Position numbers and translations under genes: made by a program. Below are positions 2,088 through 18,053 of a stretch of DNA of 64,000 nucleotides, one piece after another (the first letter of the stretch is position 1; each line of letters opens with the position of its first letter). Origin of the DNA: Alphaproteobacteria bacterium (GTDB taxonomy: Bacteria > Pseudomonadota > Alphaproteobacteria > HIMB59 > GCA-002718135); contig JBJKYR010000053.1 in assembly GCA_045560945.1 (NCBI GenBank), forward strand, positions 7,605 to 71,604. The letters run 5' to 3'. The notes beneath the pieces are model-generated. The model worked only from the letters and a program-made list of their open reading frames with translations. It was not told the DNA's origin and did not search any database.

Positions 2088-2983
2088 TTTTTATCCTTAA
2101 AAATAAGTAAAATTATAGAGACGAGTGTAAAAATTAAAAAAGTTAACATTATACCAAGAGACGAAGCTGAACCGACTTGATTCATTTGAAAAGCTTTCTT
2201 ATAGATAAACATTGATGGAATCATAGTTGAAGTTCCTGGCCCACCTCCAGTGGTTATATAAATTAAATCAAAATTTCTTAATGCTAACGTTACAGTAAAT
2301 ACTAAAGCAACAACTATTTCGCCTTTTAAATTAGGTAGTGTTACATTGAAAAATTCTGATATTGCTCCTGCCCCATCTACTTTAGCTGCATCATAAAGTT
2401 CAGTAGGTATTTTTTGAACTCCAGCAATAAATAAAATCATCGTAAAACCAAACATAACCCATGTTCCAATTAAGCCTACAAAAGGTAGCGCATAGTCAAA
2501 AGAACCAAGCCATGCTCGTGATACTTCTTCAAGTCCAAAAAAATCTAAACCTGAATTTAATGGACCTTTAGGAGCATAAATCCATCTCCAAGCTATACCA
2601 ACAACAATCATTGATAAAATTTGAGGTAGAAAAAGTATAGCTCTATATGTTGACATACCGTGAACTTTAACTCTAATCATTAGACCTGCAATTAATAAAC
2701 CAATTATAATTGGTAAGATTGAGTAAAAAATTATTAAAATAAAAGAATGCTTTATAGATGAGGTAATTTTTTTATTTTGTAAATTTTTAGCATATTGTTC
2801 TAATCCAACCCATTTTTTTTCAGATATACCATTCCATTCAGTAAATGAATTATAAAAAGTATCAGCTAAAGGAAAAAAAACAAAAACTAAGTAAAAAATA
2901 AAGGCTGGTATTAAATAAAGATAAGATGAATAGTCAACTTTGTTTTGAGGCCTATAAATATATTTTGTACTCATAGACCTCAA
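2084..2983 (-). CDS. Carbohydrate ABC transporter permease (MalF/CUT1-type)
   Basis: 299 aa with six predicted hydrophobic spans and an EAA loop (ELYDAAKVDGAGAISEFFNVTLP). It lies directly downstream of the binding-protein gene. Confidence 0.85.
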   Translation of the reverse strand: MRSMSTKYIYRPQNKVDYSSYLYLIPAFIFYLVFVFFPLADTFYNSFTEWNGISEKKWVGLEQYAKNLQNKKITSSIKHSFILIIFYSILPIIIGLLIAGLMIRVKVHGMSTYRAILFLPQILSMIVVGIAWRWIYAPKGPLNSGLDFFGLEEVSRAWLGSFDYALPFVGLIGTWVMFGFTMILFIAGVQKIPTELYDAAKVDGAGAISEFFNVTLPNLKGEIVVALVFTVTLALRNFDLIYITTGGGPGTSTMIPSMFIYKKAFQMNQVGSASSLGIMLTFLIFTLVSIILLIFKDKK

Positions 2984-2993
2984 AGAGGAAGAA

Positions 2994-4232
2994 TTAATTT
3001 ACACTTTCAGCTGCCATTGCATCCATAAACTCTTGTGCAGATGCAGCACCACCAATAACTTTTTGTAATTCTTGTGTCACGGTGTCATACATACCAGGCG
3101 TAGCCCAGTCTGTATAGAAAGTTTTAGCGTTAGCTCCTACTAAAGCATTTGATGCCGCAATAACTTCCGCTTGAAGATTTGAAGTTGGATCAATTGTAGG
3201 AGATTGTGCTGGCACTCTCCCTACACCCATTAAATCATCAATGAACTCATTACTTAACAAATGATTAATAAATTTTGCTGCTAAGGCTGGATTAGCTGAT
3301 TTAGAACTAATGTGCCATGGTAATGCGAAAGAGCCACCACCGGCTACCCCCCCACTCGCTCTTGGCATAGCAAAAGCTCCAACATTATCACCCATACCTG
3401 AATTAAAATCAGCTGTCATCCATGTACCAGTTAAATTGAAAACACCTTGTCCATTCATAAACATTGCATTAGCATCATCATATCCAATTCCTAGAGAGTC
3501 AGAACCAAAATACCCTGCGCTAGCCATATCAGCAAGTTTTGCAGCTGCTCTCATTCTATCATCAGTCATAAAATCAGTATTTTTAGCATTGAAAATCCAA
3601 CTTCTTGTTTGATTTGGATCAACAAAAGCTCCTTCTACTAATCCCCATACGTGAATAATTGGCCATCCATCTGCTCCACCTAGTGCAATTGGTAATTCAC
3701 CAGCATCTTTTGATACTTGCAATGCATTTTCAAATTCAGCAAAATTTGATGGAACTGATAGTCCAAGGGATGCAAGCTTATCTTTGTTGTAATAAACAAT
3801 TACATCTTCTGCTACAGGACTGATGCCATAAAGATTTCCAGAGCCCCAAGTTGTTCCATCGTCACTCCACATAAATTCAGCTAATGCTCCATCTGCAAAA
3901 AGATTTTTCCAACCATATGCATCGGCATATTTTTCTAATGAAATAACCAATCCATTTTGAATAAGTGTTCCGTCAACAGTAAATCCTTGGTTACCATGAG
4001 CAAGATCAGGCGGATTATTATCTGCCATTTTTAATTTAATAGTAGACATGAAGTCGTCCCATCCAAGATAGCTTGCTTCAACAGTAACACCGGGATTAGC
4101 TTCTTCAAATTGTGCGATAGCAGCTGTTAGAGTAGCTTCATCTCCTGCTTCAGCCAGTATACGAAGATTATCAGCTTTACTTGCAAATGAAAAAGCAAGA
4201 ATAGCTGTGATAATCAAAAATATTTTTTTCAT
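2994..4232 (-). CDS. Extracellular sugar-binding protein of ABC transporter (family 1 SBP)
   Basis: 412 aa with an N-terminal signal peptide (MKKIFLIITAILAFSFASKA). Size and composition are typical of CUT1 solute-binding proteins, and it is the first gene of the SBP-permease-permease operon. Confidence 0.8.
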   Translation of the reverse strand: MKKIFLIITAILAFSFASKADNLRILAEAGDEATLTAAIAQFEEANPGVTVEASYLGWDDFMSTIKLKMADNNPPDLAHGNQGFTVDGTLIQNGLVISLEKYADAYGWKNLFADGALAEFMWSDDGTTWGSGNLYGISPVAEDVIVYYNKDKLASLGLSVPSNFAEFENALQVSKDAGELPIALGGADGWPIIHVWGLVEGAFVDPNQTRSWIFNAKNTDFMTDDRMRAAAKLADMASAGYFGSDSLGIGYDDANAMFMNGQGVFNLTGTWMTADFNSGMGDNVGAFAMPRASGGVAGGGSFALPWHISSKSANPALAAKFINHLLSNEFIDDLMGVGRVPAQSPTIDPTSNLQAEVIAASNALVGANAKTFYTDWATPGMYDTVTQELQKVIGGAASAQEFMDAMAAESVN

Positions 4233-4387
4233 TTAACCTCCCAGTTATTATGTAAGACATATAAGAATACAAAATTATCAAAAAATCAAAAAAAATTTCA
4301 CTTAATTATTAAGATTACTTTCTAAGTGTATAAAAAATTCTATGATTTAGTTGAAAATATAAGACTTTTGGTGTTAAATATTATTCA

Positions 4388-5713
4388 ATGACAGAAAAAA
4401 TAGTATTAATTGGTGCTGGTAGTGCAAATTTTGGCTTAGAGGCTGTATCTGATATTTATCGCTCTAAAATTCTTGAAGGGAGTGATATTGTACTACATGA
4501 TACTGATGCAAAGTCTCTTAAAGAAACTCAAGAAGTAGCAGATAAATACAAAGGAGAGTTCGGTGTTACTTTTAATGTTAAGTCTTCTATAGACCGAAAA
4601 GAAGCATTAAAGGGAGCTACAGTAATAGTAATATCAATTGAAGTTGCACCTCGATTTGGTTTATGGGATCAGGATTGGAAAATTCCTCAACAATATGGTA
4701 TGAAACAAATTTATGCAGAAAATGGTGGTCCTGGTGGTTTATTTCATTCGTTAAGAATAATCCCACCAATTTTAGAAATTTGTGAAGATATAAATAATAT
4801 ATGTCCTGAGGCCTATGTTTATAATTTTAGTAACCCCATGCAAAGAATTTGTCATGCAGTAACTGTAAAGTATCCAAATATGAAATTTATTGGATTATGT
4901 CATGCTATAGCGGAAATGGAAAGAGATTTACCTGAATTATTAAATACAGATTTTTCTAATATTGAATATCGTGCTGGAGGATTAAATCATATTAGTATTC
5001 TTACCGATGTAAAATATAAAGATACAAAAAAAGATGCATACCCTCTTATAAGAAAAAAGGCATTAGAATATTACAAGAACTATATTATTGATTTTGAAAA
5101 AATGAATGAACAATCTACTTCACCTGGAGCTGAAAGAGGAATATTTTTAAAATTATTTGAAACATATAATTATTTACCAATCACAACTGATAGTCATCTT
5201 GGTGAATATCTCCCTTGGGCTCATAGTATTGCTGATCATTATGCTATTCTAGAATTTTATAAAAATTATAAAGTAAATTGTCAGACTATCTATAGGTCAG
5301 AAAAAATGCACAGTTTTTATTTTGATCAAAATCGTCATTCTAAAGAAAGGCTTGTAGATTTAATGGAAGCTGTTGTAGAGGATCGAAATATGGAAGAAGC
5401 AGCCGTTAATATTCTAAATGAAGGATATATAAAACAACTTCCTAATGATATAGTTGTAGAAGTGCCAGCAATGGTAAACAAAAAAGGCATTAAGGGCATT
5501 AAATTAGATAATTATCCGGATAATTTTGCTTCAATTCTAGTTAATCAAGTTGGAACTATTCGTTTAACAACAACTGCTGTATTAGAGCAATCAAAAGAAG
5601 CTGCCTTTCATGCTTTATTAGCAGATCCAGTTGTGGATAATTTTGGTCAAGCTCAAAAATTATTAGATACTATGATAACTTTTCAAAAAGAACATTTAGG
5701 TTATTTAAAATAA
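4388..5713 (+). CDS. Glycoside hydrolase family 4 (NAD+/Mn2+-dependent glycosidase)
   Basis: 441 aa with an N-terminal Rossmann motif (KIVLIGAGSANFG) and the conserved FIGLCHA cysteine motif characteristic of GH4. Confidence 0.8.
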   Translation: MTEKIVLIGAGSANFGLEAVSDIYRSKILEGSDIVLHDTDAKSLKETQEVADKYKGEFGVTFNVKSSIDRKEALKGATVIVISIEVAPRFGLWDQDWKIPQQYGMKQIYAENGGPGGLFHSLRIIPPILEICEDINNICPEAYVYNFSNPMQRICHAVTVKYPNMKFIGLCHAIAEMERDLPELLNTDFSNIEYRAGGLNHISILTDVKYKDTKKDAYPLIRKKALEYYKNYIIDFEKMNEQSTSPGAERGIFLKLFETYNYLPITTDSHLGEYLPWAHSIADHYAILEFYKNYKVNCQTIYRSEKMHSFYFDQNRHSKERLVDLMEAVVEDRNMEEAAVNILNEGYIKQLPNDIVVEVPAMVNKKGIKGIKLDNYPDNFASILVNQVGTIRLTTTAVLEQSKEAAFHALLADPVVDNFGQAQKLLDTMITFQKEHLGYLK

Positions 5714-5714
5714 A

Positions 5715-6818
5715 TTGATACATTTAGGTATTATTGGATGTGGCTCAGTTATGCAGGGTCCTTACATGGAGTTAGTAAATAAACTTGCATTTAAAAATAT
5801 CATAAATTTAAAATCTATTTCTGATAAAAATGTAAAATTAGAGAGAGTTTTAAAAAAAAAATTTAAATTTCAATATTTTTATAATGATTATAAAAAAATT
5901 CTAAATGATAAACAAATTGATGTTGTACTTATTTTAACATCAATGAACGAACATGCATCTATTGCCAAAGAGGCTTTATTAAGTAAGAAACATGTTTTGG
6001 TTGAAAAACCTATGTCTACAAATATGGAAGATTTAAAAAAATTATTTTTACTTGCAAAAAAATCTAAAAATTTATTTGTGGCTGCTCCTTTCGTTATATT
6101 AAGTCCTACTTTTCAAGCAATTCATCAAGAAATAAATAATAACACTATAGGTAAGATATCTTTAGCAAGAGCTAGATATGGATGGTCCGGTCCGAACTGG
6201 GGTGAATGGTATTATAAAACAGGTGGTGGACCACTTTTTGATCTAGGAGTGTATAATATTACAACTTTAACAGGCCTTTTAGGGCCTGTTAAAAATATTA
6301 TAGCAAAATCATCAATTTCAAAACCATTTAGAAAAATAAATGGAAAAAAAATAAAAGTTATCACGGATGATAATTTTCAAATTTTATTAGAATTTCAAAA
6401 TAAATGTATATCAGTTGTTACAACTGGCTTCACTATGCAACAATATAGTTCACCAGCAGTTGAGCTTTACGGATCAGATGGAACTATTCAAATGCTTGGT
6501 GATGATTGGGAACCTAAAGGATATGAAATTTGGAACAATAAGAGATCTTCATGGGAATTATTTAAAACTCCATATGCTAATTGGCCTTGGGCATCGGGCT
6601 TTACACATCTTATTGATTGCATTATTAATAAAAAAAAACCTATGATATGCTTAGACCATGCGTACCATGTTAATGAAATTATGATTAAAATTTATGAGTC
6701 TTCTAAAAAAAATAAATCAATTTCTATTAATAGTTCTTTTAAACCTTTAAAATTTAATAAAAAAATTAAAATTAAAAAAAGCTATTTAGATCATGACAGG
6801 AATCATGATGACATATAA
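5715..6818 (+). CDS. Gfo/Idh/MocA family NAD(P)-dependent oxidoreductase
   Basis: 367 aa with a TTG start 1 nt after the GH4 stop. It has N-terminal GIIGCGSV and the EKPM motif (VLVEKPMS) typical of Gfo/Idh/MocA. Confidence 0.8.
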   Translation: MIHLGIIGCGSVMQGPYMELVNKLAFKNIINLKSISDKNVKLERVLKKKFKFQYFYNDYKKILNDKQIDVVLILTSMNEHASIAKEALLSKKHVLVEKPMSTNMEDLKKLFLLAKKSKNLFVAAPFVILSPTFQAIHQEINNNTIGKISLARARYGWSGPNWGEWYYKTGGGPLFDLGVYNITTLTGLLGPVKNIIAKSSISKPFRKINGKKIKVITDDNFQILLEFQNKCISVVTTGFTMQQYSSPAVELYGSDGTIQMLGDDWEPKGYEIWNNKRSSWELFKTPYANWPWASGFTHLIDCIINKKKPMICLDHAYHVNEIMIKIYESSKKNKSISINSSFKPLKFNKKIKIKKSYLDHDRNHDDI

Positions 6819-7629: not shown

Positions 7630-7823
7630 GATTACTTTTTATTAACTGATTCAAAAATTAATTGAAATAAATAGTGGCACCGACAAGGAGTAAATTCACA
7701 ACAAGTACAGTGCAAAATAAAAGAACTATTTTATCTATCAATGCCACAGTTATAATCTAAAGATCAAAATTGACATCAAAGAGGTCTAAATGTGTTGGTA
7801 ATAAGATATTAAAATAATAATCT

Positions 7824-7900
7824 TGGCGTGCCCGGCATGATTCGAACATACGACCCCCAGATTAGGAATCTGGTGCTCTATCCAACTGAGCTACGGGCAC
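7824..7900 (-). tRNA. tRNA-Arg (anticodon CCT), CCA encoded
   Basis: Hand-folded cloverleaf. The acceptor is GTGCCCG/CGGGCAC, the D-arm is GCTC-AGTTGGATA-GAGC, the anticodon stem is CCAGA/TCTGG with loop TTCCTAA, the T-loop is TTCGAAT, and the 3' end is CCA. Confidence 0.9.
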
Positions 7901-7927
7901 TTATTTATTTATAGTCGTTTTATCAAG

Positions 7928-8764
7928 TTAGTTATTAAAAGTAATAGCTTTAAATTTTTGCGTTTGAGTCATAAGCGCTTGTTCAACTGGTAAACGCTCC
8001 ATACTGCTAGCCCCATAAAAACCTTGAATATTTTTACAATTATTAAGAATAAAACTAGCATCATTTGGCATAGCTATTGGACCTCCATGACAAAGAACAA
8101 TAATGTCATCACGAATATTACGTGCAGCTTCTGCCCATTCATCAATAATAGGAATACAATCTTTTAAATTTAATACTGTTTCCGACCCGATGCTGCCACC
8201 AGAAGTTAAACCCATATGACAAACAATGATATCAGCGCCAGCTTTGGTCATTTTTTCAGCATCTTTTTTAGAAAAAACATAAGGTGTGGTGAGCATATCA
8301 TGCTTGTTTGCTTTTTTAATCATGTCAACTTCAAGGTTGTAACTCATTCCTGTCTCTTCTAAATTTTCTCTAAAAACACCATCAATAAGTCCAACTGTTG
8401 GAAAATTCTGAACACCTGAAAAACCTAATCGTTTTAATTCAGGTATGAAGACATCAAGGTCACAAAAGGGATCAGTGCCATTTATACCTGCTATAACAGG
8501 TGTTTTTTTAGTAACAGGTAAAATCTCTTTAGCCATATCAAGTAATATTTCATTAGCATTACCATATGCGAGTAAACCTGCTAGAGATCCCAGTCCAGCC
8601 ATACGGTAGCGACCTGAATTATAAATGACAATTAAATCAATACCTCCAGCCTCTTCCCATTTAGCTGAAAGACCTGTCCCTGCACCGCCTCCAATAATAG
8701 GTTCACGTCTTACAATCATACTTTTAAATTTTGCAAGTATCTGAGATCGTTCAATTATAGGCAT
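7928..8764 (-). CDS. Phosphoenolpyruvate-hydrolase-like TIM-barrel protein (Tm-1 C-terminal-domain-like), function unknown
   Basis: 278 aa. The N-terminus ([49 protein letters not shown]) matches the conserved start of the TIM-barrel family that is normally paired with UPF0261 proteins. Confidence 0.7.
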
Positions 8765-8773
8765 AAATATTCT

Positions 8774-9958
8774 TTATATGATTTTTTTAAATTGTTTAAC
8801 TAATTCCTTTGAAAATTCTGGATCGTTGATGTTGTGATTAAGTTTAATTAGTTTTCTTTTCTCTGTCTGCATTACGTTGTTCTCTATAGCGTCAAAAAGA
8901 GCTGCATCAGCTCTGGGATTATAAAATACTTGCCCTTCTGAGTCTAGTGAAGATAAGCCTTTTAAAGGTAATAAAAAACGTACCTCTCCTTTCATTTGAT
9001 TAAGTTTATCAGCAATCCATTGACCTATATATTTATTTTCTTCTATTGTAGTACGCATAAGAGTAACATTTGAATTATGAGAGTGTAACTTTCTTTCTTT
9101 GTATTTTTGGGGTACACTTTCTTTTGCTCCAAAGTTAACCATATCCAAAGCGCCACAAGAACCAACATAAGGAAGTTTGGTACGAATAATACTATTTAAA
9201 CGATCTTCACCAGCACTAAAAACACCACCCATTAGAAGATCACAAATTTCTGTTGTCGTTGCATCAATTAGCCCTTTAACAAATCCTGATTCAACTAATT
9301 TTTCCATTGATTGTCCTCCTGTTCCTGTGGCATGAAAAACAATACAATCAAAATCAGATTCGAGTTCTTTTACTACTGCTTGAATACAGGGTGTAGTAAC
9401 CCCAAACATACTCAGACCTATGGCAGGTTTATTTTTAACTTTTGGGATACAAGATTTGACCATACCAGCAATTGCATGAGCACCATTACCTAAAACTTTT
9501 CTAGAAATTCTATTTAAACCTTGAATATCTGTAATCGAATATATCATACAGATATCATTAGGTCCTACATAAGGTTGAACGTTACCAGAGGCTACCGTTG
9601 AAATCATAACCTTAGGTATTCCAACAGGTAAAGTTCGCATTGCTGCTGTGACCAATTCTGTTCCACCTGAACCACCTGCACTAATAATACCTTCAATATC
9701 AGTTCGTGAACTAATAAAATGTTTAAGTGCAATACTCATTTGCGTTATTGCTTTACCACGATCATCATCAAATACGTTTACTGCTCTGTTTGGATGATGA
9801 TTTGCAACAATCTGAGAATTTACATCTACATTTTTAGAATTAACTAATGTGCTTACATCAACGAGTAAAGTTGAAGTACCAGTACGTTTAATTAAATCAC
9901 TTATATAGTTTAATTCTAGTCCTTTGGTATCGAATGTGCCAATCACATATATAGTCAT
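8774..9958 (-). CDS. UPF0261 / Tm-1-like ATP-binding domain protein, function unknown
   Basis: 394 aa. The YVIGTFDTKGLEL start and SAGGSGGTELV motif are typical of UPF0261. It sits 9 nt upstream of its usual TIM-barrel partner. Confidence 0.7.
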   Translation of the reverse strand: MTIYVIGTFDTKGLELNYISDLIKRTGTSTLLVDVSTLVNSKNVDVNSQIVANHHPNRAVNVFDDDRGKAITQMSIALKHFISSRTDIEGIISAGGSGGTELVTAAMRTLPVGIPKVMISTVASGNVQPYVGPNDICMIYSITDIQGLNRISRKVLGNGAHAIAGMVKSCIPKVKNKPAIGLSMFGVTTPCIQAVVKELESDFDCIVFHATGTGGQSMEKLVESGFVKGLIDATTTEICDLLMGGVFSAGEDRLNSIIRTKLPYVGSCGALDMVNFGAKESVPQKYKERKLHSHNSNVTLMRTTIEENKYIGQWIADKLNQMKGEVRFLLPLKGLSSLDSEGQVFYNPRADAALFDAIENNVMQTEKRKLIKLNHNINDPEFSKELVKQFKKII

Positions 9959-9961
9959 AGC

Positions 9962-10396
9962 TTAGCTTTTATTAGACAAACTACCAGGAGGTAAAATATG
10001 TTTGGCCATGTCACGTAATAAATCCTCAGGTCCAGGAGGGGCATAAATAGCAATAAGTTTTAGTGTCTCCCATGATGTATTTATTGTTTCATGATAAATA
10101 TCTGCAGGAATATGAATAAGCATACCTGCTTTAATAAGTTTGCGTTCTTCTTTCATACCTCCATGATCATCAGAAATTTCTACCATTTGTTCACCTTCGC
10201 CAGAAATGACATATAAAATTTCTTCAACTCCAGGATGATTATGTCTAGTATGCCCTTTACCAGGTTCAAGTAAAACTACTCCTGATGTGAATTTTTTTGC
10301 ATCATTATGATTAGGTGTGCTCATCCATTTTATAGTGCCCCAATCAAAGACTTGTGTTTCAATATCTTCAGGTGAAATAAATCTCTTATTTGACAT
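9962..10396 (-). CDS. Small cupin-domain protein
   Basis: 144 aa with cupin motifs GHTRHNHPGVEEILYVISGEG and IPADIYHETIN. It is the first gene of the three-gene operon and ends 3 nt before the next start. Confidence 0.7.
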   Translation of the reverse strand: MSNKRFISPEDIETQVFDWGTIKWMSTPNHNDAKKFTSGVVLLEPGKGHTRHNHPGVEEILYVISGEGEQMVEISDDHGGMKEERKLIKAGMLIHIPADIYHETINTSWETLKLIAIYAPPGPEDLLRDMAKHILPPGSLSNKS

Positions 10397-10555
10397 ATGT
10401 CTTTACTTTCCCATCATGTATAAAAAAAACTAAATTAATTACAGAGATAATAATAAATGTTTAAATTAGCACAATGTAGTTATAAATTTATAAGATATTA
10501 TAAATTTTTCAGGATCTCAATAAAAAACAATATTGCTAAAAATCAGTTGTTGTCT

Positions 10556-10600
10556 ATTCGATTAGGAGTCTAATGCTCTATCCTACTGAGCTACGAGTAC
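10556..10600 (-). pseudogene. Degenerate 5'-half copy of tRNA-Arg(CCT) (acceptor 5' strand, D-arm, anticodon stem-loop only)
   Basis: The minus-strand read GTACTCGTAGCTCAGTAGGATAGAGCATTAGACTCCTAATCGAAT aligns to positions 1 to about 40 of the tRNA at 7824-7900. By hand alignment about 37 of 44 positions are identical. Similarity ends at the 3' side of the anticodon stem, and no T-arm or 3' acceptor strand follows. Confidence 0.7.
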
Positions 10601-10715
10601 AACTAACAAAACCTTAATTTTTTACCTAGTAGACTCTCTAAAAAATATAATCTATTGTTAATAAGTAAATTTAACTCATTGACAAATCAAATCTGAATTG
10701 TTTTAAATAATCAAC

Positions 10716-11054
10716 ATGAAAATATTACTATTTGTGATCTTTTTACTAACTTCATTTTGCAAATTTTCATTTTCAGATGAGCATTCAGATGAGCAAAAAA
10801 TTATTGAAATGGGTGATATAGAATATGGACAATATTTAGCTGCTGAATGTGCGTCATGCCATCAGCAGTCAGGAGCTAGTGAAGGCATTCCTTCAATACA
10901 CGGTATGGATGCAGAGGTTTTCGTTGCTTTAATGCTTGCTTACAGATCAAAAGAGATGGAAAATCCTGTTATGCAAATGATCGCTGGGAGACTTGATGAT
11001 GAACAAATTGGTTCATTGGCTCTTTATTTTAGTCAAGTAGAACCCTCAGAATGA
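10716..11054 (+). CDS. Monohaem c-type cytochrome (FccA/SoxE-like partner of the sulfide dehydrogenase flavoprotein)
   Basis: 112 aa with a signal peptide, a single CASCH haem-binding motif and a downstream Met-rich ligand region (NPVMQMIAG). It lies immediately upstream of the flavoprotein gene. Confidence 0.7.
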   Translation: MKILLFVIFLLTSFCKFSFSDEHSDEQKIIEMGDIEYGQYLAAECASCHQQSGASEGIPSIHGMDAEVFVALMLAYRSKEMENPVMQMIAGRLDDEQIGSLALYFSQVEPSE

Positions 11055-11126
11055 TCATATTTTCATTTACTTAAGGTTAAAATTTGATAACATCTTATCA
11101 TATTACAATTTTTTGGGGAGGACATA

Positions 11127-12395
11127 ATGTCAAAAATTTCAAGACGTCTTTTTAATACAGGTATTGCTGCTGCCTCAGCTGCAACACTTGCTTTTCCATC
11201 TGTATCACTTGGTGCTTTACCAAGAGTTGTAGTTATTGGAGGAGGAGCAGGTGGTGCAACCGCAGCAAGATATATTGCTAAAGACTCTGGTGGTGCAGTT
11301 CATGTAACACTTGTTGAGGCATCAAAGCGATATTATACATGCTTTTTTTCTAATATTTATTTAGGTGGATTTCGAAATTATGGTTCGATAGGCCATAATT
11401 ACTATGGTTTAGCTGTAAACCAAGGTGTGAATGTTGTTCATGAGTGGGCTGTTTCAGTTGATTCAGTTGCTAGAAAGGTCAAGCTAGGTTCTGGTGAACA
11501 TCTTTCATATGATAAACTTGTTATTTCACCCGGAATTGATCTTAAGTATGATAAAATCAATGGATATTCTGCTGCAGTTCAAGATAAAATGCCTCATGCA
11601 TGGAAGTCTGGTACTCAGGTACAGTTATTAAGAAATCAAGTAATGAATATGAAGCAAGGTGGAACTTTTGTAATGGTTCCTCCTCCAAATCCATATAGAT
11701 GTCCACCTGGACCATATGAAAGAGTGTCTATGATCGCTCATCAATTTAAACAATCTAATCCTACAGGAAAAATTGTTATTTTAGATCCTAAACCTAAATT
11801 TTCTAAACAAGGTTTATTTGAGGCAGGATGGCAAAAACATTATCCAGGAATGATAGAGTGGATTAGCTCAGAAGATCATGGTGGGCTTAAAAATGTAAAT
11901 GCTTCTACAATGGAGTTTGAAACAGATTTAGATACATTTAAAGCTGATGCTGCATGTGTTGTCCCAGCTCAAAGAGCTGGTGCTATTGCAATGGCAGCAG
12001 GTGTTAACAATGGTGACTGGTGTCCTATTGTTCCTACATCCATGCAATCTCAAGCAGATGAAAATATTTATGTTTTAGGTGATGCATCTGTTGCTAAATC
12101 AATGCCAAAGTCTGGTTTTTCAGCCAACAGTCAAGCCAAAGTAGCAGCTAATCATATCAGAGGTGCTTTAACAGGAAGTAAAGTATTTGATGCTCGTTAT
12201 TCAAATACCTGCTGGTCACTAATTGCGCCTGATGATGATGTTAAGGTTGGTGCGAGTTATGTTGGTGGCGCAGAAGCTATTGATGTTGAAAGTAAATTTA
12301 TTTCACAAGCTGATGACACTAGTGAAACGAGAGCAGCTAACTATCAAGAATCTATAGATTGGTATAATGGTATAACTGCTGATATGTTTTCTTAA
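11127..12395 (+). CDS. Flavocytochrome c sulfide dehydrogenase flavoprotein subunit (FccB/SoxF-like)
   Basis: 422 aa with a Tat signal (SRRLFNTGIAAASAATLAF) and an FAD Rossmann motif (VVVIGGGAGGATAARY). It has the paired cysteine pattern (YRCPPGPYER) typical of FCSD/SoxF. Confidence 0.8.
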   Translation: MSKISRRLFNTGIAAASAATLAFPSVSLGALPRVVVIGGGAGGATAARYIAKDSGGAVHVTLVEASKRYYTCFFSNIYLGGFRNYGSIGHNYYGLAVNQGVNVVHEWAVSVDSVARKVKLGSGEHLSYDKLVISPGIDLKYDKINGYSAAVQDKMPHAWKSGTQVQLLRNQVMNMKQGGTFVMVPPPNPYRCPPGPYERVSMIAHQFKQSNPTGKIVILDPKPKFSKQGLFEAGWQKHYPGMIEWISSEDHGGLKNVNASTMEFETDLDTFKADAACVVPAQRAGAIAMAAGVNNGDWCPIVPTSMQSQADENIYVLGDASVAKSMPKSGFSANSQAKVAANHIRGALTGSKVFDARYSNTCWSLIAPDDDVKVGASYVGGAEAIDVESKFISQADDTSETRAANYQESIDWYNGITADMFS

Positions 12396-12423
12396 AACTT
12401 TTTAATTAATAGAAACAGATAAA

Positions 12424-12446
12424 GGCGGCTAATAGCCGCCTTTTTT
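12424..12446. terminator. Bidirectional rho-independent terminator between convergent fccB-like and soxB
   Basis: A perfect 7-bp GC-rich stem GGCGGCT/AGCCGCC with a 3-nt loop, followed by T6 on the plus strand and preceded by an A-run. The T-tract overlaps the soxB stop codon. Confidence 0.6.
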
Positions 12447-14130
12447 AAACTCCCTTAATTTGTACTAGATTGTTATTTTTTGCTTTGATAATTTTTTCAT
12501 CAGAAATATAATCTTCTAATAGTTTATAAATAGGAGGTCCTTCCACTTCGGGATTTATTGATCCCCAACCACCAATAGTATAATTTTTTTGCGATTCAAT
12601 TTTTTCACCATTAGATAATTTTAGATCACTTATTCTATTTCCCATTGTGTTCTTAGGTTGACAAGTATATGTCATTCCTCCAACTCTAACCATATCACCA
12701 CCTTGCTGGAAAAAAGGATCTGGATTAAAAATATTATCACATACGTCTTCTAAAAGATTTTTTATAGTCTCACCATTCATTTCAGTTCTATATACTTCTG
12801 GATAATTCATTGAAGTTTGTGAATAAATATCGTCAATAGTTATCTTTTGACCTGGTAATAAGGTTGTTCCCCATCTAAAACCTGGGCTTAATGAAATTTC
12901 TGCATCCCTTTCCTGAATAATTGCGTCACAAATCACACTATCCCAAGGCCCACCAAAATTACCTCTTCTATAAAGCAAGGTTTCAGTTGCTCCGACAACA
13001 CGATTACATTCTTCCTCATATGGTGCTCTAATTTTATCAATTAAACTTGTCATTTCTGGATCAGGTTGAATTACATCTGAAAAAATAGGTATTAAATTTG
13101 ATGAGAAATCAACAACTTTACCATTGTCAACTTTCAGATCAATCCTGCCTAAATATTTGCCATGAGATCCAGATGAAAGAAGTAAAGTATTTTTTATCTT
13201 AATTGCTCTTGGAATTGCATCATGAGTATGGCCAGTTAGTATAACATCAACATTATCTAAAATAGCTGCTAATTTCTGATCTACATCGAACCCATTATGA
13301 GATAATATAACTACTACTTCAGCACCATTTTTTTTTGCTTTATTTATATTTTTTTGAATGATTTCTGGTCTTATTCCAAAAGACCAACCATCAACTAAGT
13401 AGCTTGGATTAGCAATAGGAGTGTATGGGAAGTGTTGACCAATAACTGCAATATTAACACCTCCTTTCTCAAAATAAGAAGTGCTTTCAAAGACAGGTTC
13501 ATCCCATTCAGTATCAAAAACATTTCCACCAAGAAATGGAAAATTTATTTTATCAATTAATTCACTAAGCCGATCTTGGCCAAGCGTAAACTCCCAATGC
13601 CCTACCATAGCATCTGGTTTTAAGAGGTTCATTGCTTCTAACATATCTTCCCCTTGAGTTTTTAAAGAAGTGTATGAACCTTGCCATGTGTCACCACCAT
13701 CTAATAAAAGTACTTTATCCTCTCCTCTTTCTCCCCTGATTTTTTTAATCAAAGCTGATGTTCTGTCTAATCCTCCGAGTTTGCCATACTCTCTAGCTAA
13801 TGGAACATAGTCAAGCATAGTATGTGCGTAAGCGAGTGGTGTGTTGGGCTCAATGCCAAAATAATCTAAAAAAACTTTTCCAACAAGATGAGGAGGAATG
13901 CCTTCGTATTTTCCAATTCCAAAATTTTCTGATGGTGGCCTAAAAAAAACAGGTTTAAGTTGGCCATGTATATCAGTTATATGCAGTAAAGTAATTTGAC
14001 CTTTTGAGTCAAATTCTAAAAGATCATTTTCAGAAATTTCTTGTTTAGCGGCAACAGCGCTCCAACTTTTGCTACCAACCAACATTGCTGTAATTGTAGC
14101 TAATTGAATAAATTCTCGCCTCGATTGCAT
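12445..14130 (-). CDS. soxB: Sulfur-oxidation thiosulfohydrolase SoxB (5'-nucleotidase/metallophosphatase family)
   Basis: 561 aa with a Tat signal (SRREFIQLATITAM). Metallophosphoesterase motifs are present (LLHITDIHG, DGGDTWQG, GHWEF, LSHNG, GHTHD), followed by a C-terminal 5'-nucleotidase-like domain. It sits in a sox operon context. Confidence 0.9.
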   Translation of the reverse strand: MQSRREFIQLATITAMLVGSKSWSAVAAKQEISENDLLEFDSKGQITLLHITDIHGQLKPVFFRPPSENFGIGKYEGIPPHLVGKVFLDYFGIEPNTPLAYAHTMLDYVPLAREYGKLGGLDRTSALIKKIRGERGEDKVLLLDGGDTWQGSYTSLKTQGEDMLEAMNLLKPDAMVGHWEFTLGQDRLSELIDKINFPFLGGNVFDTEWDEPVFESTSYFEKGGVNIAVIGQHFPYTPIANPSYLVDGWSFGIRPEIIQKNINKAKKNGAEVVVILSHNGFDVDQKLAAILDNVDVILTGHTHDAIPRAIKIKNTLLLSSGSHGKYLGRIDLKVDNGKVVDFSSNLIPIFSDVIQPDPEMTSLIDKIRAPYEEECNRVVGATETLLYRRGNFGGPWDSVICDAIIQERDAEISLSPGFRWGTTLLPGQKITIDDIYSQTSMNYPEVYRTEMNGETIKNLLEDVCDNIFNPDPFFQQGGDMVRVGGMTYTCQPKNTMGNRISDLKLSNGEKIESQKNYTIGGWGSINPEVEGPPIYKLLEDYISDEKIIKAKNNNLVQIKGV

Positions 14131-14171
14131 TATGTTACTCTAAATTATTATCTTATAATTAACTTTAATAA

Positions 14172-14825
14172 CTATTCGTCTTCTGGAGTTACATCAATAT
14201 CTCTAGCTTTTCCAATAATTTTTGTAGATACTTGACAATTACTCATACAAGGGTTTCCGTGCGTATTCATGGTGTCTGGTCTTGGATCAGGTAATAAAAA
14301 ACCATCTTTATTTGGCATCTCTATTTCACCAATATTTGTATCTGATAAAACAAAATCTTCTTCGATTATGTCACCCATATATAGAAGATAGGCTACAATT
14401 CCATAGGTTTCATCATACGATAAGGATTGCGAATCACCATATGGCATTGCTCTATAAATATAATCAAAGATTGTAGATGCGAAGGGCCAGTAACTTGTAG
14501 CAGTTTTTTCCGGATCATGTGAAGCTAAACTACCTTCACCTCCAACGAGTGGAGGCCACCTATCTGCTCCTTCACCAAAATCACCATGGCATGCTGCGCA
14601 TTGTTCAGAGTATATTTCTTCACCAAACAAAGCAGTTCCACTTCCAATTGGTGCACCCAAACCATCAGGTCTCACATCAATATCCCATCCTACAACTTCT
14701 TCTTTAGAAGCAATCTCCCCTAAATTAAATTTTCTGTCACTAGCAATTGTTGTACTTGTTAAAAATATTATACATGCAAAGCTTAGTATGCTTTTAACCA
14801 AGCCTGACATTGTCAACCTTTCCAT
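14172..14825 (-). CDS. soxD: SoxD-like monohaem cytochrome c subunit of sulfane dehydrogenase
   Basis: About 212-217 aa with a signal peptide and a single CAACH motif. It overlaps the 3' end of soxC. The true start is probably the Met at 14810 (MSGLVKS...). Confidence 0.7.
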   Translation of the reverse strand: MERLTMSGLVKSILSFACIIFLTSTTIASDRKFNLGEIASKEEVVGWDIDVRPDGLGAPIGSGTALFGEEIYSEQCAACHGDFGEGADRWPPLVGGEGSLASHDPEKTATSYWPFASTIFDYIYRAMPYGDSQSLSYDETYGIVAYLLYMGDIIEEDFVLSDTNIGEIEMPNKDGFLLPDPRPDTMNTHGNPCMSNCQVSTKIIGKARDIDVTPEDE

Positions 14826-16083
14826 TTTTAGAAACTAGCCAAGTTGCTATTGAATTATTATGATAAATTGAATTCACACCTCTAATTTTTTGAAGTTCAT
14901 CAATAGTAGGTTGGACATAATTTGTCTCATCAATTGCTCTTGATTGTAATAGTAATTCCTCACCTTTCCATTCAAATGGCAATGTAAATCTAGTTAATGA
15001 TTTACTTAGAACTGGTGAGTGAAGTTGGGCAGTTTTCCAATTCTTGCCACCATCAATCGAAACATCTACACGTTTAATTTTACCTCTACCTGACCAAGCA
15101 AGACCTCTTAATTGATGCAATCCTTTTGCAAGTATTGGTTTTTCGGGACTTGGAGAAGTTATGACAGATTTAGCATCCATAACCCAGGTAAACATTCTAG
15201 CTTTTCCACTTGTTAACAAATCTGTATATTTAGATGTTTCTTCTCTAGTCATGTAAGGTTTGTCACCAAACTCTAGTCTCCTGATCCATTTTACCCACAT
15301 ATTACCTTCCCAACCAGGAACTACGAGGCGCGCCGGATAACCTTGTTCAGGTCTTAATGCTTCTCCATTCATTGCCCAGGCAATGATACAATCATCTAAA
15401 ATTTTTTCTATAGGAATAGAGCGTGTCATTCCTGATGAATCGCTTCCTTCAGCTAAAACCCACTTGGCTTTTTCTTTTAAACCAGTCTCTAAAAGTAGAT
15501 CAGATAATTTAACACCTGTGTATTGAACATTATGCACCATTCCAAAGGTGTATTGGCATCCATTTAATTGAGATCCTCTCCATTCCATACCACCATTTGC
15601 AGCACATTCAAGAAAGTAAAATTTATTTGTTTGAGGAAAGCGTTTTAAGTCATCAAGAGTAAATATCATTTCGCGATCTACTAAACCATTGATCATCAAT
15701 CTAAAGTCTTGTGGATTAATAACTGAAACACCCCCATGATGTCTTTCAAAGCAAAGACCATTAGGTGTTACAATTCCTTCAAGATCTTGTAATGGAGTAA
15801 AATTGACTGAAGATTCAGCACTTGCTGTAAGCCACTCAACATTTCTTCTTATGACATGTCCCTCAAACTCAGAAGGCATACCGTAAGGATTTACATCAAC
15901 GCCGTCACCAAGGTATTGTGTCCACTCAGGAAGGTTTGGTGGTAAGTTTTCAGGATTTACTTCTTCTGATAAAAGGTTTTTTGGAGCCAATGAAAAAGCT
16001 CCAATACTTGAGGCGCCAATTATTAAGTCTCTACGATTAAATTTTTTAAAGTTAGACACTTCATTTTTTTTATTTTTTTTCAC
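14794..16083 (-). CDS. soxC: SoxC molybdopterin sulfane/sulfite dehydrogenase subunit
   Basis: 429 aa with a Tat signal (NRRDLIIGASS) and sulfite-oxidase-family Moco-domain motifs (FERHHGG, FLECAANG, ARLVVPGWEGNMWVKW). A C-terminal dimerisation domain follows. Confidence 0.85.
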   Translation of the reverse strand: MKKNKKNEVSNFKKFNRRDLIIGASSIGAFSLAPKNLLSEEVNPENLPPNLPEWTQYLGDGVDVNPYGMPSEFEGHVIRRNVEWLTASAESSVNFTPLQDLEGIVTPNGLCFERHHGGVSVINPQDFRLMINGLVDREMIFTLDDLKRFPQTNKFYFLECAANGGMEWRGSQLNGCQYTFGMVHNVQYTGVKLSDLLLETGLKEKAKWVLAEGSDSSGMTRSIPIEKILDDCIIAWAMNGEALRPEQGYPARLVVPGWEGNMWVKWIRRLEFGDKPYMTREETSKYTDLLTSGKARMFTWVMDAKSVITSPSPEKPILAKGLHQLRGLAWSGRGKIKRVDVSIDGGKNWKTAQLHSPVLSKSLTRFTLPFEWKGEELLLQSRAIDETNYVQPTIDELQKIRGVNSIYHNNSIATWLVSKNGKVDNVRLG

Positions 16084-16085
16084 TA

Positions 16086-16412
16086 TTAAGAAACAACCAT
16101 ATCTTTAGAGATTGAATATATTTCCCCATTATCGTCTATCCATTCAAAATCAAATTTACCACTTTCTTTCGCTTTAAATTGAAAAACAATATAAGGATTG
16201 GTTGATATTGACGGCTCAAGATCCATCTGAAAAACTTCTTTTCCATTAAATTTAGCACTAAATGAATTAATTATATGTCTTGGTATTGTTTGACCATCCA
16301 TATCTTTCATTCTACCACTATGCATAGGGTGTCTAATTAATGTTTTAATTTCAACAACCTCATCAATAGATACTTCTTTAGGTACTTTTACTCTTGGTTT
16401 AATTGAAGACAT
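16086..16412 (-). CDS. soxZ: SoxZ sulfur-carrier complex subunit
   Basis: 108 aa. Its size, its position directly after soxY, and the KTLIRHPMHSG segment are typical of SoxZ. Confidence 0.8.
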   Translation of the reverse strand: MSSIKPRVKVPKEVSIDEVVEIKTLIRHPMHSGRMKDMDGQTIPRHIINSFSAKFNGKEVFQMDLEPSISTNPYIVFQFKAKESGKFDFEWIDDNGEIYSISKDMVVS

Positions 16413-16426
16413 AATTACTCCTTATA

Positions 16427-16903
16427 TTATCCGCCACATCCACCAATTGTGACTTTTACTTGTGCATTGGTCATGAGAAATTGACCATTATTATTTTCAG
16501 CTAATAAATAAACATTTTGTGTTTTTGATAATCGTATTCTTGTTGTTGCAGAACATGATCCCATTTCTGGTGTGAAAGAGAATTTTGCAACATTTGGTGA
16601 AGGGTTTCCGTCTGCTAAAATATAAACAGTTTTAATATGATCAGAATCAGTCATAGGGGTATCCAATTCAAAACTAACTTTTACCTGATTGCCATTTTCT
16701 GCAATTTCTGGTAAATCCAGCCAAATATCACTTTCAGTTGCACCCAATCCATTTGTAATTTCATTTATTCTGTTTAAAGCTTGGTTAGATTGTGCAAATG
16801 ATATTGAAGGCAAAATTGCTGTTCCTGTAAAACCAGCAATAATTTGCAAGGCGTTTCTTCTTGAAATTTTTCTTAATTTTTTTAACCTCATTGATATCCT
16901 CAT
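16427..16903 (-). CDS. soxY: SoxY sulfur-carrier protein
   Basis: 158 aa with a Tat signal (SRRNALQIIAG) and the diagnostic C-terminal swinging-arm motif VTIGGCGG at the very end of the protein. Confidence 0.9.
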   Translation of the reverse strand: MRISMRLKKLRKISRRNALQIIAGFTGTAILPSISFAQSNQALNRINEITNGLGATESDIWLDLPEIAENGNQVKVSFELDTPMTDSDHIKTVYILADGNPSPNVAKFSFTPEMGSCSATTRIRLSKTQNVYLLAENNNGQFLMTNAQVKVTIGGCGG

Positions 16904-16970
16904 AGATTGTAAAGAAAGTAAATATTTAATATATTATGTAATAATAAATTTATTCAAATCAATCAAATAT

Positions 16971-17333
16971 TTAATCACGATCAAGAATTTCATCAACTTG
17001 CCACCAAAACATTTCTGCACTTGAATATCCTATAATGCGTCCAATTTCTTCTTTTTCCTTAAAAAAAACAAATGTTGGTGTAATTTTTGTTTCATTACTG
17101 TCTAAATCATTCCTTATTGAGTGTTCGTCAAGCTCAATTCTTTCCAAAGGGAAACTTTTGGCAATATCAGTCTTAGGGTAAATTTTACCAATTTCTTTTT
17201 CCCAAATTTGACAGTAAACACAATAATCAGCAGTTATCATGAGAAGCTTACTATCAGCAAAAGATGATTTTAATGATAATAAAAAAATTACTATTAAAAC
17301 TAATGTAAAATTGTACAATTTCTTAAACACCAT
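16971..17333 (-). CDS. Periplasmic thioredoxin-fold protein (SoxS/SoxW-like)
   Basis: 120 aa with a signal peptide and a single CVYC redox motif followed by W..EI....YP. It lies between the pseudoazurin gene and soxY. Confidence 0.55.
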   Translation of the reverse strand: MVFKKLYNFTLVLIVIFLLSLKSSFADSKLLMITADYCVYCQIWEKEIGKIYPKTDIAKSFPLERIELDEHSIRNDLDSNETKITPTFVFFKEKEEIGRIIGYSSAEMFWWQVDEILDRD

Positions 17334-17368
17334 AAGAAAATCTAATTTGTTAGGTCTTTCAAAAAAAA

Positions 17369-17791
17369 TTAAAGTTCTTTTAATAACTCTTTAAATATTT
17401 TTTTTGATTTACCTCCCATTTTTGCTTTTTTAATTTTATCTAAATTGCTTAGGTCATCTCCAACCACAACTAAACCAATCATGCCCATTGATTTATGAGG
17501 AGTACAAACGTATAAATAGATACCTGGAATTTCAAATTTATATTCTGCATCTTTACTTATTTTTGATTTGAATTTTTCAACTCCATTTGGCATCTCTACA
17601 AATTCAACATTATGCCCTTTATCTACTGATTTCCAAATAATAGAGTCACCAATATCTACTTTTGCAACTTTTATGGAATAAACCATTTTTTCTTTTCCAA
17701 GTTTATTCACCATGTCTATTTCGATAGTCTCAGCATAGCTATAAAAAGATATTGAGATGCATGAAATAATTAAAAAAAGATATTTAAACAT
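17369..17791 (-). CDS. Pseudoazurin (type-1 blue copper electron carrier)
   Basis: 140 aa with a signal peptide. The copper ligand pattern is DKGHNVE ... YLYVCTPHKSMGMIGLVVVGD, and the C-terminal helix region is NLDKIKKAKMGGKSKK. It tracks Paracoccus-type pseudoazurin closely, from memory of that sequence. Confidence 0.85.
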   Translation of the reverse strand: MFKYLFLIISCISISFYSYAETIEIDMVNKLGKEKMVYSIKVAKVDIGDSIIWKSVDKGHNVEFVEMPNGVEKFKSKISKDAEYKFEIPGIYLYVCTPHKSMGMIGLVVVGDDLSNLDKIKKAKMGGKSKKIFKELLKEL

Positions 17792-17976
17792 TTTGAATCC
17801 TTTAATTTTCCTATTTTTAAATAACTAAAGATTGAGTCAATAATAACATACACATAGGGTTTATTCTACAAACTTTTTAAGTGTTATGATAAGAAAGATT
17901 TTAGTTAATAGTAATCATGTGGTACTCAAACTTATTTATTAATTATATTAATTAAAAAAGTAAGGAAAACCAAGAA

Positions 17977-18053
17977 GCGCCCGTAGCTCAATTGGATAGA
18001 GCGCCAGACTACGGATCTGGAGGTTAGGAGTTCGACTCTTCTCGGGCGCGCCA
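17977..18053 (+). tRNA. tRNA-Arg (anticodon ACG), CCA encoded
   Basis: Hand-folded cloverleaf. The acceptor is GCGCCCG/CGGGCGC, the anticodon stem is CCAGA/TCTGG with loop CTACGGA, the T-loop is TTCGACT, and the 3' end is CCA. Confidence 0.9.

Follow-up and report, generated by a model that had tools for sequence, protein, structure and literature searches.

Cis-mobilizable elements (CIMEs) are derivatives of integrative elements that are flanked by attachment (att) sites but encode no integrase. Among islands in tRNA genes (tDNAs), those marked by a 5' fragment of the target form a documented minority: they account for 159 of the 3919 tDNA islands in the Islander collection, and the sole 5' configuration accepted there is one with the fragment upstream (PMC4383910). 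Integration of an island upstream of arg2 in Klebsiella provides a precedent for this mode. Here, we describe a locus in a 64,000-nt stretch of alphaproteobacterial DNA, called the window below, in which an intact tRNA-Arg(CCT) gene and a same-strand copy of its 5' half bracket a three-gene metabolic operon that we call the cassette. We conclude that the locus is most likely an old tRNA islet of the 5'-fragment type that contains cargo only and no integrase, and we put at roughly 60% the probability that the fragment is the attL-type scar of an integrase-mediated insertion into tRNA-Arg(CCT) in this minority configuration. The event is of a known kind, and no new mechanism is invoked.

The locus resembles the Islander 5'-fragment class, and the arg2 islands of Klebsiella pneumoniae, in that an intact tDNA is accompanied by a cognate terminal fragment in direct orientation, the 5' fragment being the upstream partner; in that class the anticodon loop is the centre of the crossover sublocation and the insert restores the gene, as we propose here. 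The first-pass annotation had singled out the duplication of a 5' rather than a 3' half as odd, and the Islander counts and the arg2 case account for that oddity. By the Islander criteria (PMC4383910), the fragment is cognate to the tRNA gene, lies on the same replicon in the same orientation, is an end fragment in the correct configuration and falls outside conserved protein domains, and the 2.66-kb length is within the 2-200 kb range; no tyrosine integrase gene lies inside or overlaps the island, and the Islander integrase filter would therefore reject the locus. The locus also departs from this class in carrying 2.66 kb of metabolic cargo only, and in having a junction that is ancient and clade-wide rather than strain-specific.

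Like CIMEs, the cassette is flanked by att-like repeats, which we take to represent att sites, has no integrase, recombination or transfer genes between them and is possibly mobilizable by a related integrase in trans; unlike CIMEs, it has no cognate complete element that could be found in the window's genome. Circumstantial evidence for mobilization in trans comes from two observations detailed below, namely an integrase gene beside the same tRNA gene in one relative and near-identical cassettes with different left arms in others. Passages of the tycheposon report (10.1101/2020.12.28.424599) describe a related situation, in Prochlorococcus rather than an alphaproteobacterium: streamlined marine genomes carry flexible metabolic cargo by tRNA genes, partial tRNAs mark old integrations, variation peaks right beside the tRNA, and cargo is left without mobility genes. 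The likeness to those passages covers the partial tRNAs and not which half is retained, and the tycheposon hallmarks, a deep-branching tyrosine recombinase and a replication module, were found neither within the repeats nor in about 10 kb on either side (Pfam, translations).

A recurrent breakpoint in tRNA-Arg(CCT)

The window has a GC content of 30%, and its own locus is referred to as WIN. The tRNA-Arg(CCT) gene, which the first-pass annotation had described as complete, is recognized as such by both ARAGORN and Rfam (Table 1). The fragment, read on the minus strand from 10600 to 10560, has the sequence GTACTCGTAGCTCAGTAGGATAGAGCATTAGACTCCTAATC, corresponding to tRNA nt 1-41; it is identical to the window's own tRNA at 35/41 positions (6 differences) and to the clade consensus at 36/41 (5 differences), and the best ungapped local alignment, against tRNA positions 6-41, has 32/36 identities. 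A 36-nt degenerate pattern has two matches in the window, the tRNA and the fragment, and none in 100 shuffles. In local alignment the fragment scores 52, to which the other tRNA, Arg-ACG, alone is comparable, while the remaining background reaches at most 24. Rfam reports a partial tRNA at 19.4 bits, below the gathering score of 29, and ARAGORN does not call the fragment as a tRNA. Homology ends at …CTCCTAATC/GAATAG; the slash stands 2 nt beyond the 3' edge of the anticodon loop, and the fragment lacks the stem's 3' strand. The copy of about 45 nt reported in the first-pass annotation is thus real, but it stops just past the anticodon loop and not at the 3' side of the stem. The block shared with a relative also reaches about 41 nt further upstream than had been drawn, through a segment that we call flank alpha.

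The fragment lies on the same strand as the tRNA and upstream of it. It is an end piece of the gene, not an internal one, and occupies intergenic DNA flanked by the cupin gene (which starts at 10396) and fccA (which starts at 10716), with 2.66 kb between the repeats. Most likely it is non-functional and represents an attL-type scar. The identity of fragment and tRNA stops at a short core, the presumed crossover region, and GGATAGAGCACCAGATTCCTAATC is the core-ending sequence to whose right the junction partners start. This end point is common to all of the junctions that we stacked and to 5'-half-only sites in IMG/VR. Within the intact gene, the 5' 26 nt are common to relatives; the anticodon stem, variable loop and T-stem vary between WIN, L003/L004 and L005/L116 (L-numbers designate the related loci that were compared).

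Table 1. Features of the tRNA-Arg(CCT) locus in the window.
Feature	Coordinates (strand)	Basis or remark
Flank directly 3' of the tRNA	7653..7823 (-)	blastn breakpoints versus L003/L004
Intact tRNA-Arg(CCT)	7824..7900 (-)	ARAGORN call; Rfam tRNA, 67 bits
Core TCCTAATC in the intact tRNA	7860..7867 (-)	anticodon loop + 2 nt; fragment/tRNA identity stops here
Spacer, 27 nt	7901..7927 (-)	PEP_hydrolase-like stop codon to tRNA; conserved along with the cassette
PEP_hydrolase-like TIM barrel (PF09370), cargo gene 3	7928..8764 (-)	Pfam E=8e-128
UPF0261 / Tm-1-like ATP-binding protein, cargo gene 2	8774..9958 (-)	Pfam PF06792 + PF23189
Cupin (Cupin_2, small), cargo gene 1	9962..10396 (-)	Pfam
Cassette leader	10397..10559 (-)	conserved; begins directly after the core
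5' half of tRNA-Arg(CCT)	10560..10600 (-)	acceptor 5' strand, D-arm, anticodon-stem 5' strand, loop, TC
Flank alpha	10601..10641 (-)	about 41 nt upstream of the 5' half; homologous with L102

Relatives were gathered, with their genomic context, via homologues of the UPF0261 and cupin proteins, and fall into three groups. Group 1 (81-95% protein identity; L003, L004, L005, L006, L095/L096, L101-L107 and L116) has a GC content of 29-32% in the longer contigs, rising to about 41% in short contigs of little more than the cassette. It keeps the order leader, cassette, spacer, and the downstream tRNA-Arg(CCT) is intact in L003, L004, L005 and L116, a pseudogene in L095/L096, truncated in L101 and not recognisable in L006. 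Group 2 (about 73% identity, 42-46% GC; L097-L100 and L108-L115) carries the three genes within larger sugar/sulfatase operons, followed by a DUF6807 or methyltransferase gene, and its loci contain neither the tRNA nor the fragment. Group 3 (at most 61% identity) was used solely as an outgroup, and among the matches listed a tRNA-Arg lies beside the genes in 0/80 genome loci. In addition, positions 10682-7854 of the window recur at 100% identity in L001, an independent contig from Logan.

In every group 1 relative for which the upstream region is available, a 5' half ending in CCTAATC is joined to the leader, and the cassette, the 27-nt spacer and the tRNA follow. When the copies are stacked on the core, the leader starts right after …TAATC, within 1-2 nt, in every case. 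To the left of the leader, WIN and L102 each have flank alpha followed by a 5' half that matches the consensus at 36/41 positions; L103 has a different flank, after a potA-like gene, and a perfect half (41/41); and L095/L096 have a copy of the PEP_hydrolase-like gene end and spacer, then a half matching at 38/41. The halves of L005 and L003 are decayed yet in register (25/41 and 21/41), with 13/27 matches over the first 27 positions, against a null expectation of 6.5±2.1 (p ~0.004), and L116 retains only a vestige with indels. Changes in the fragments run mostly from GC to AT (4/5 in WIN, 12/16 in L005, 15/20 in L003), which fits neutral decay in an AT-rich genome and not conserved function. 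The first-pass annotation had reasoned that relatives with the same genes and no fragment, or with two full tandem tRNA-Arg genes, would speak against an insertion; every informative relative has at least a decayed fragment, and a full second tRNA at the fragment's position was found in none of the relatives examined.

The left arms differ even between closely related copies: the L102 and L103 cassettes are 98.8% identical, yet one is preceded by flank alpha and the other by the flank after the potA-like gene. WIN, at 84% identity to L102, has flank alpha in common with it, the homology starting at L102:789, equivalent to window position 10641; to the left of this point L102 is homologous to the CoA_binding_2 context of L116. 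Because flank alpha occurs in both main branches, it likely represents the ancestral state of the left arm and may once have been the native flank upstream of the tRNA gene that was targeted. In the 84% lineage, the downstream tRNA of L095 (5033-5109) and L096 (2919-2995) has become a pseudogene: it differs at 27/77 positions, 22 of the changes being from GC to AT, has no ARAGORN call and is much less well kept than the truncated half upstream. This decay suggests that tRNA-Arg(CCT) is dispensable, or duplicated elsewhere, in the L095/L096 genome.

The same breakpoint is also found with other DNA. L101 comes from an ENA metagenome contig of 34 kb and matches L116 at 98.7% identity over the stretch that begins with the cupin gene and ends at the downstream tRNA's core. 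Past …CCTAATC, L116 continues into the tRNA 3' half and a terminator-like hairpin; L101 continues into at least 9 kb of unrelated DNA with Metallophos, two aminotransferases, a choline-kinase-like gene, DAO and an ABC transporter. L116 itself contains a further 5' half (15178-15211), cut at the same point, after a fatty-acid-hydroxylase gene. As a separate observation, the stop codon TAG of the opposite-strand Metallophos open reading frame in L101 (2485-2496) is the reverse complement of the core's CTA, so that the junction supplies the stop.

Elements that carry their own integrase break the gene at this position as well. A scan of IMG/VR with a D-arm-to-core pattern returned 37 stretches, mostly intact tRNA-Arg(CCT) genes of high-GC hosts, but six of them are 5' halves only, with homology ending after CCTAATC(T/TGG) and no tRNA found by ARAGORN. 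Five of the six have a homologous tyrosine integrase 45-525 nt from the core, on the element side and reading toward the core; these integrases are 42-68% identical to one another, and the one that was scanned (L126) matches Pfam at 5.7e-23. IMGVR_UViG_3300001728_000002 (39.9 kb) begins with the half and the integrase (L126) and ends with lysis-type genes and an intact tRNA-Arg(CCT) on the same strand (L122), and is a complete prophage in the 5'-fragment configuration. The window shares with these proviruses (L126/L122, L128, L144, L146, L151) the tRNA isoacceptor, a half at one end with the intact tRNA at the other, and a 5' half ending in …CCTAATC joined to non-tRNA DNA. They differ from it in having 55-60% GC, a size of about 40 kb where this is known (L126/L122), post-core sequence unrelated to the leader, and an integrase that lies on the element side at no more than about 0.5 kb from the core, where the window has the leader and cupin gene. 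Searches of viral contigs with the cassette and with the integrase of L005 (described below) gave no match, and phage GenBank, queried with the tRNA, returned full-length phage tRNA-Arg genes only, with no att-like partial match from marine phages.

Variation also occurs on the 3' side of the tRNA, which makes the locus a hot spot of integration and variation for the clade. In L005, a tyrosine integrase gene starts about 48 nt after the tRNA (Pfam Phage_integrase 6e-11, plus Int_N); it has the same domain layout as the IMG/VR family, at 29% identity (E=2e-12). In L003 and L004, relatives at 95%, a 2.77-kb segment with GST (GST_C_3) and ABC-exporter genes lies exactly between the CCA end of the tRNA and the homologue of the window's 3' flank (2787-5555 in L003), and no displaced tRNA 3' fragment is visible at the distal end of the L003 insertion. 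Although their cassettes are the closest to that of WIN, the tRNAs of L003/L004 differ from it from position 27 on, in the anticodon stem, variable loop, T-stem and discriminator. L003 and L004 also have a Zn_peptidase_2 gene of about 690 bp that is absent from the window; the L003 stretches that stand out from the window are 2787-5555 and 5727-6414, with equivalents in L004.

Proposed history and competing explanations

We propose that a tyrosine integrase exchanged strands in or beside the anticodon loop (…TTCCTAATC) of a resident tRNA-Arg(CCT) gene. The incoming DNA would have consisted of the leader, the cupin, UPF0261 and PEP_hydrolase-like genes, the 27-nt spacer and a tRNA 5' half; because it brought its own 5' half, the cassette would have separated the old 5' half from the old 3' half. 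The former, still attached to its old upstream flank, would then have become a decaying scar, and the incoming 5' half would have joined the old 3' half to make a working tRNA, so that the gene in today's window would be an attR-like junction of a cassette-borne 5' part and a resident 3' part that met at the anticodon loop. The predicted order is flank alpha, old 5' half and core, followed by leader, cassette, spacer, incoming 5' half, core and resident 3' half, an arrangement that would mirror the usual tRNA island by leaving a 5' fragment upstream and not a 3' fragment downstream. We infer the agency of an integrase, the direction of the event and the mode of tRNA expression; the working tRNA probably rides on the cassette transcript or on a promoter inside the cassette.

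The first-pass annotation had suggested that the cassette was inserted into, or next to, the tRNA gene, and its case is strengthened by the conserved junction, the recurrent breakpoint, the lack of the tRNA in group 2 and the integrase-bearing IMG/VR elements. Site-specific recombination at the tRNA-Arg(CCT) loop, by integrases of elements that carry the 5' part, is the simplest account of all junctions. The insertion is old: it predates the split of the 81-95% lineages, and the cassette is host-like in composition. Of the two histories offered earlier, an old insertion or a decayed tandem tRNA, the age is borne out by the native composition, the GC-to-AT decay and the clade-wide junction, whereas a decayed tandem lacks the full copies it calls for. 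As no integrase remains, the locus today is a cargo-only remnant, which could at most still be mobilized in trans or rearranged through homologous recombination at its repeats.

Several observations weigh against this interpretation. No integrase or integrase remnant lies between the repeats (Pfam, three cargo genes), and tblastn with the L005 and L126 integrases found no homologue in the whole 64-kb window, in agreement with the earlier remark that none remains. In IMG/VR the integrase adjoins the core, and here the leader does; a history in which the integrase was deleted thus needs a deletion that stopped near the core. Neither an empty site (flank alpha with an intact tRNA) nor a circular junction turned up, though no dedicated search for them was made. 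A foreign composition of the cassette was considered and ruled out: its GC content at third codon positions (GC3) is 17-19%, similar to its neighbours, and 18% of same-size windows have a tetranucleotide distance as great or greater. The comparison with the flanks called for in the first-pass annotation hence finds the cassette native on both measures and gives no support for a foreign origin; the cassette is either ameliorated or has always been native to the clade. Most comparison loci are short metagenome contigs, in which a mis-join at the 35-41-nt repeat could fake a left arm, especially in L103. L116 contains, at 14148-14190, a full-length tRNA relic that lacks 21 nt between one AATC in the anticodon loop and another in the T-loop, and this deletion indicates that breaks after TAATC can also come from microhomology. 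Finally, this relic and the one at 15178-15211 lie downstream of the intact tRNA, which a one-directional mirror model does not predict.

The L116 deletion bears on the possibility that two full tRNA-Arg(CCT) genes once flanked the operon and that the upstream one lost its 3' half through a microhomology deletion starting from the loop AATC. Copies in this clade do decay, as the L095/L096 pseudogene also attests. We nevertheless consider this history quite unlikely, since no full-length upstream copy exists in the relatives examined, all copies are cut at the same nucleotide although the fragments have diverged at 3 to 20 of 41 positions, and the same cut with three independent partners is improbable for random deletions; it would, moreover, still have to explain how two tRNA copies came to bracket one operon. 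A tandem duplication without an integrase would start from an ancestor with leader, cassette, spacer and tRNA in that order. The segment from the leader to the anticodon loop would have been duplicated, by slippage or unequal exchange at a microhomology, and most of the first copy then deleted, leaving the 5' half. The L095/L096 half is indeed preceded by a copy, of about 35-45 nt, of the PEP_hydrolase-like end and spacer (score 32, against 19.3±2.5 in shuffles), a junction exactly like that of a tandem cassette array, and the L095 fragment and downstream pseudo-tRNA both have the derived change G19A. The spacer-type arm nonetheless looks derived, since WIN (clade A) and L102 (clade B) share flank alpha, which is unlike the spacer, and an array can equally arise secondarily by unequal exchange between att repeats. 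Duplication also leaves unexplained both the two other, unrelated DNAs at the same nucleotide (L101, and L116 at 15.2 kb) and the integrase-bearing elements that break tRNA-Arg(CCT) there, and we regard it as unlikely.

Retention of the fragment for a function, whether as a promoter or leader derived from the tRNA or as a regulatory small RNA of the operon, is very improbable. It would suit the fragment's constant position on the coding strand, about 160-200 nt ahead of the first gene, and its near-perfect state in L103 and L095. Across the clade, however, preservation is erratic (41/41, 38/41, 36/41, 25/41, 21/41 and the L116 vestige) and the changes are GC-to-AT-biased, the anticodon stem cannot form in most copies, and the promoter-like hexamers lie outside the fragment, downstream of the core in the leader. 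A structured regulatory RNA was considered separately and rejected on the erratic conservation and on Rfam, which gives a partial tRNA only.

Under the integrase-mediated insertion that we favour, several later events are plausible. The core may have received further insertions (L101, L116), and islands may have come and gone on the 3' side in the classical way (L005, L003/L004). Unequal exchange between repeats may have given a tandem array that was then trimmed, which would explain the spacer-type arm of L095/L096, and the tRNA may have been lost where it is dispensable (the L095/L096 pseudogene). A bolder and improbable extension would make tRNA-Arg(CCT) an integron-like platform in AT-rich marine Alphaproteobacteria, at which integrase-less modules, each with a tRNA 5' half and core, are inserted, stacked and swapped at the core by an integrase encoded elsewhere. 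Candidate modules would be the kinase cassette, the FA_hydroxylase unit of L116 and the potA-linked unit of L103; if this were true, arrays of 5' halves would accumulate, and near-identical cassettes would occur in different neighbourhoods.

If the insertion reading holds, the locus offers a nucleotide-resolved example of how flexible metabolic genes become fixed beside tRNA genes in streamlined marine heterotrophs, and indicates that the rarer upstream (5'-fragment) mode of tRNA integration works at tRNA-Arg(CCT) for prophages and for a cargo-only remnant alike. The core (…GATAGAGCACCAGATTCCTAATC, after which the junction partners begin) could serve as a practical probe with which to catalogue, in ocean metagenomes, the flexible cargo of this locus and the turnover of its islands.

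Cassette content and surroundings

The cassette is one minus-strand operon with gaps of 3 and 9 nt, and its coordinates and Pfam assignments agree with the cupin/UPF0261/TIM-barrel operon of the first-pass annotation. For the UPF0261 family, the first enzyme activity reported is that of an ATP-dependent small-molecule kinase, MarK (PMC12624787). The window's UPF0261 protein is identical to an NCBI entry labelled marine "MAG: Alphaproteobacteria bacterium"; a search of metagenome contigs with this protein found a single close locus, L006. The region downstream of the L006 cassette was considered as a decayed tRNA, a candidate that was dropped when the alignment proved not significant. The exact 73-nt tRNA has no match among GTDB species representatives, from which this allele is absent. 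Most UPF0261 homologues at 79-85% identity are on contigs of about 2.0-3.5 kb, near cassette size, which may reflect assembly breaks at strain-variable flanks or, equally, the ordinary shortness of metagenome contigs.

On both sides the cassette is conserved together with adjoining noncoding DNA. The flanks upstream of the tRNA are homologous in an alignment of WIN, L003, L005, L095, L101 and L116, and the leader is homologous up to the junction in WIN, L003, L005, L095, L102, L103 and L116. The leader contains a promoter-like TTGAGA-17-TATCTT (10520-10492), a consensus match only, and an operator-like block (about 10440-10476) related to GTGCCAACTCGAACGTTTGTTATGC, which also occurs upstream of the L097 cupin gene (74% identity). 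The block reads GTGCCAACTCG(A/G)ACGTTTGTTATGC in the leaders of L006 and L116 and at L097 9480-9510, about 60-85 nt upstream of the cupin start; in L097 it overlaps the end of a LacI-family gene. The window's version has decayed toward AT (TTGTGCTAATTTAAACATTTATTATTATC). Capture of the cassette seems to have brought along its regulatory region but not its regulator.

The cassette sits at the seam of two accessory-looking modules. To the right of the fragment (10716-17791) is a sulfur-oxidation block with fccAB (flavocytochrome c), soxB, soxC/D-like, soxYZ-like and pseudoazurin-like genes; an exact look-up of the FccB protein returned no record. To the left of the tRNA is a sugar-utilisation block with a 278-aa cupin, a GFO/IDH/MocA oxidoreductase, GH4 and a sugar ABC transporter. 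Beyond the sulfur-oxidation block, the motif CATGTGGTACTCAAA lies at 17918-17935, about 45 nt upstream of tRNA-Arg(ACG) (17977-18053). L006 has one full copy of CATGTGGTACTCAAA, with a partial copy before it (GTGGTACTCA), at 2730-2765, downstream of its cassette at the place expected for tRNA-Arg(CCT), and the regions around the motif in the window and in L006 align by blastn at 75% over 71 nt.

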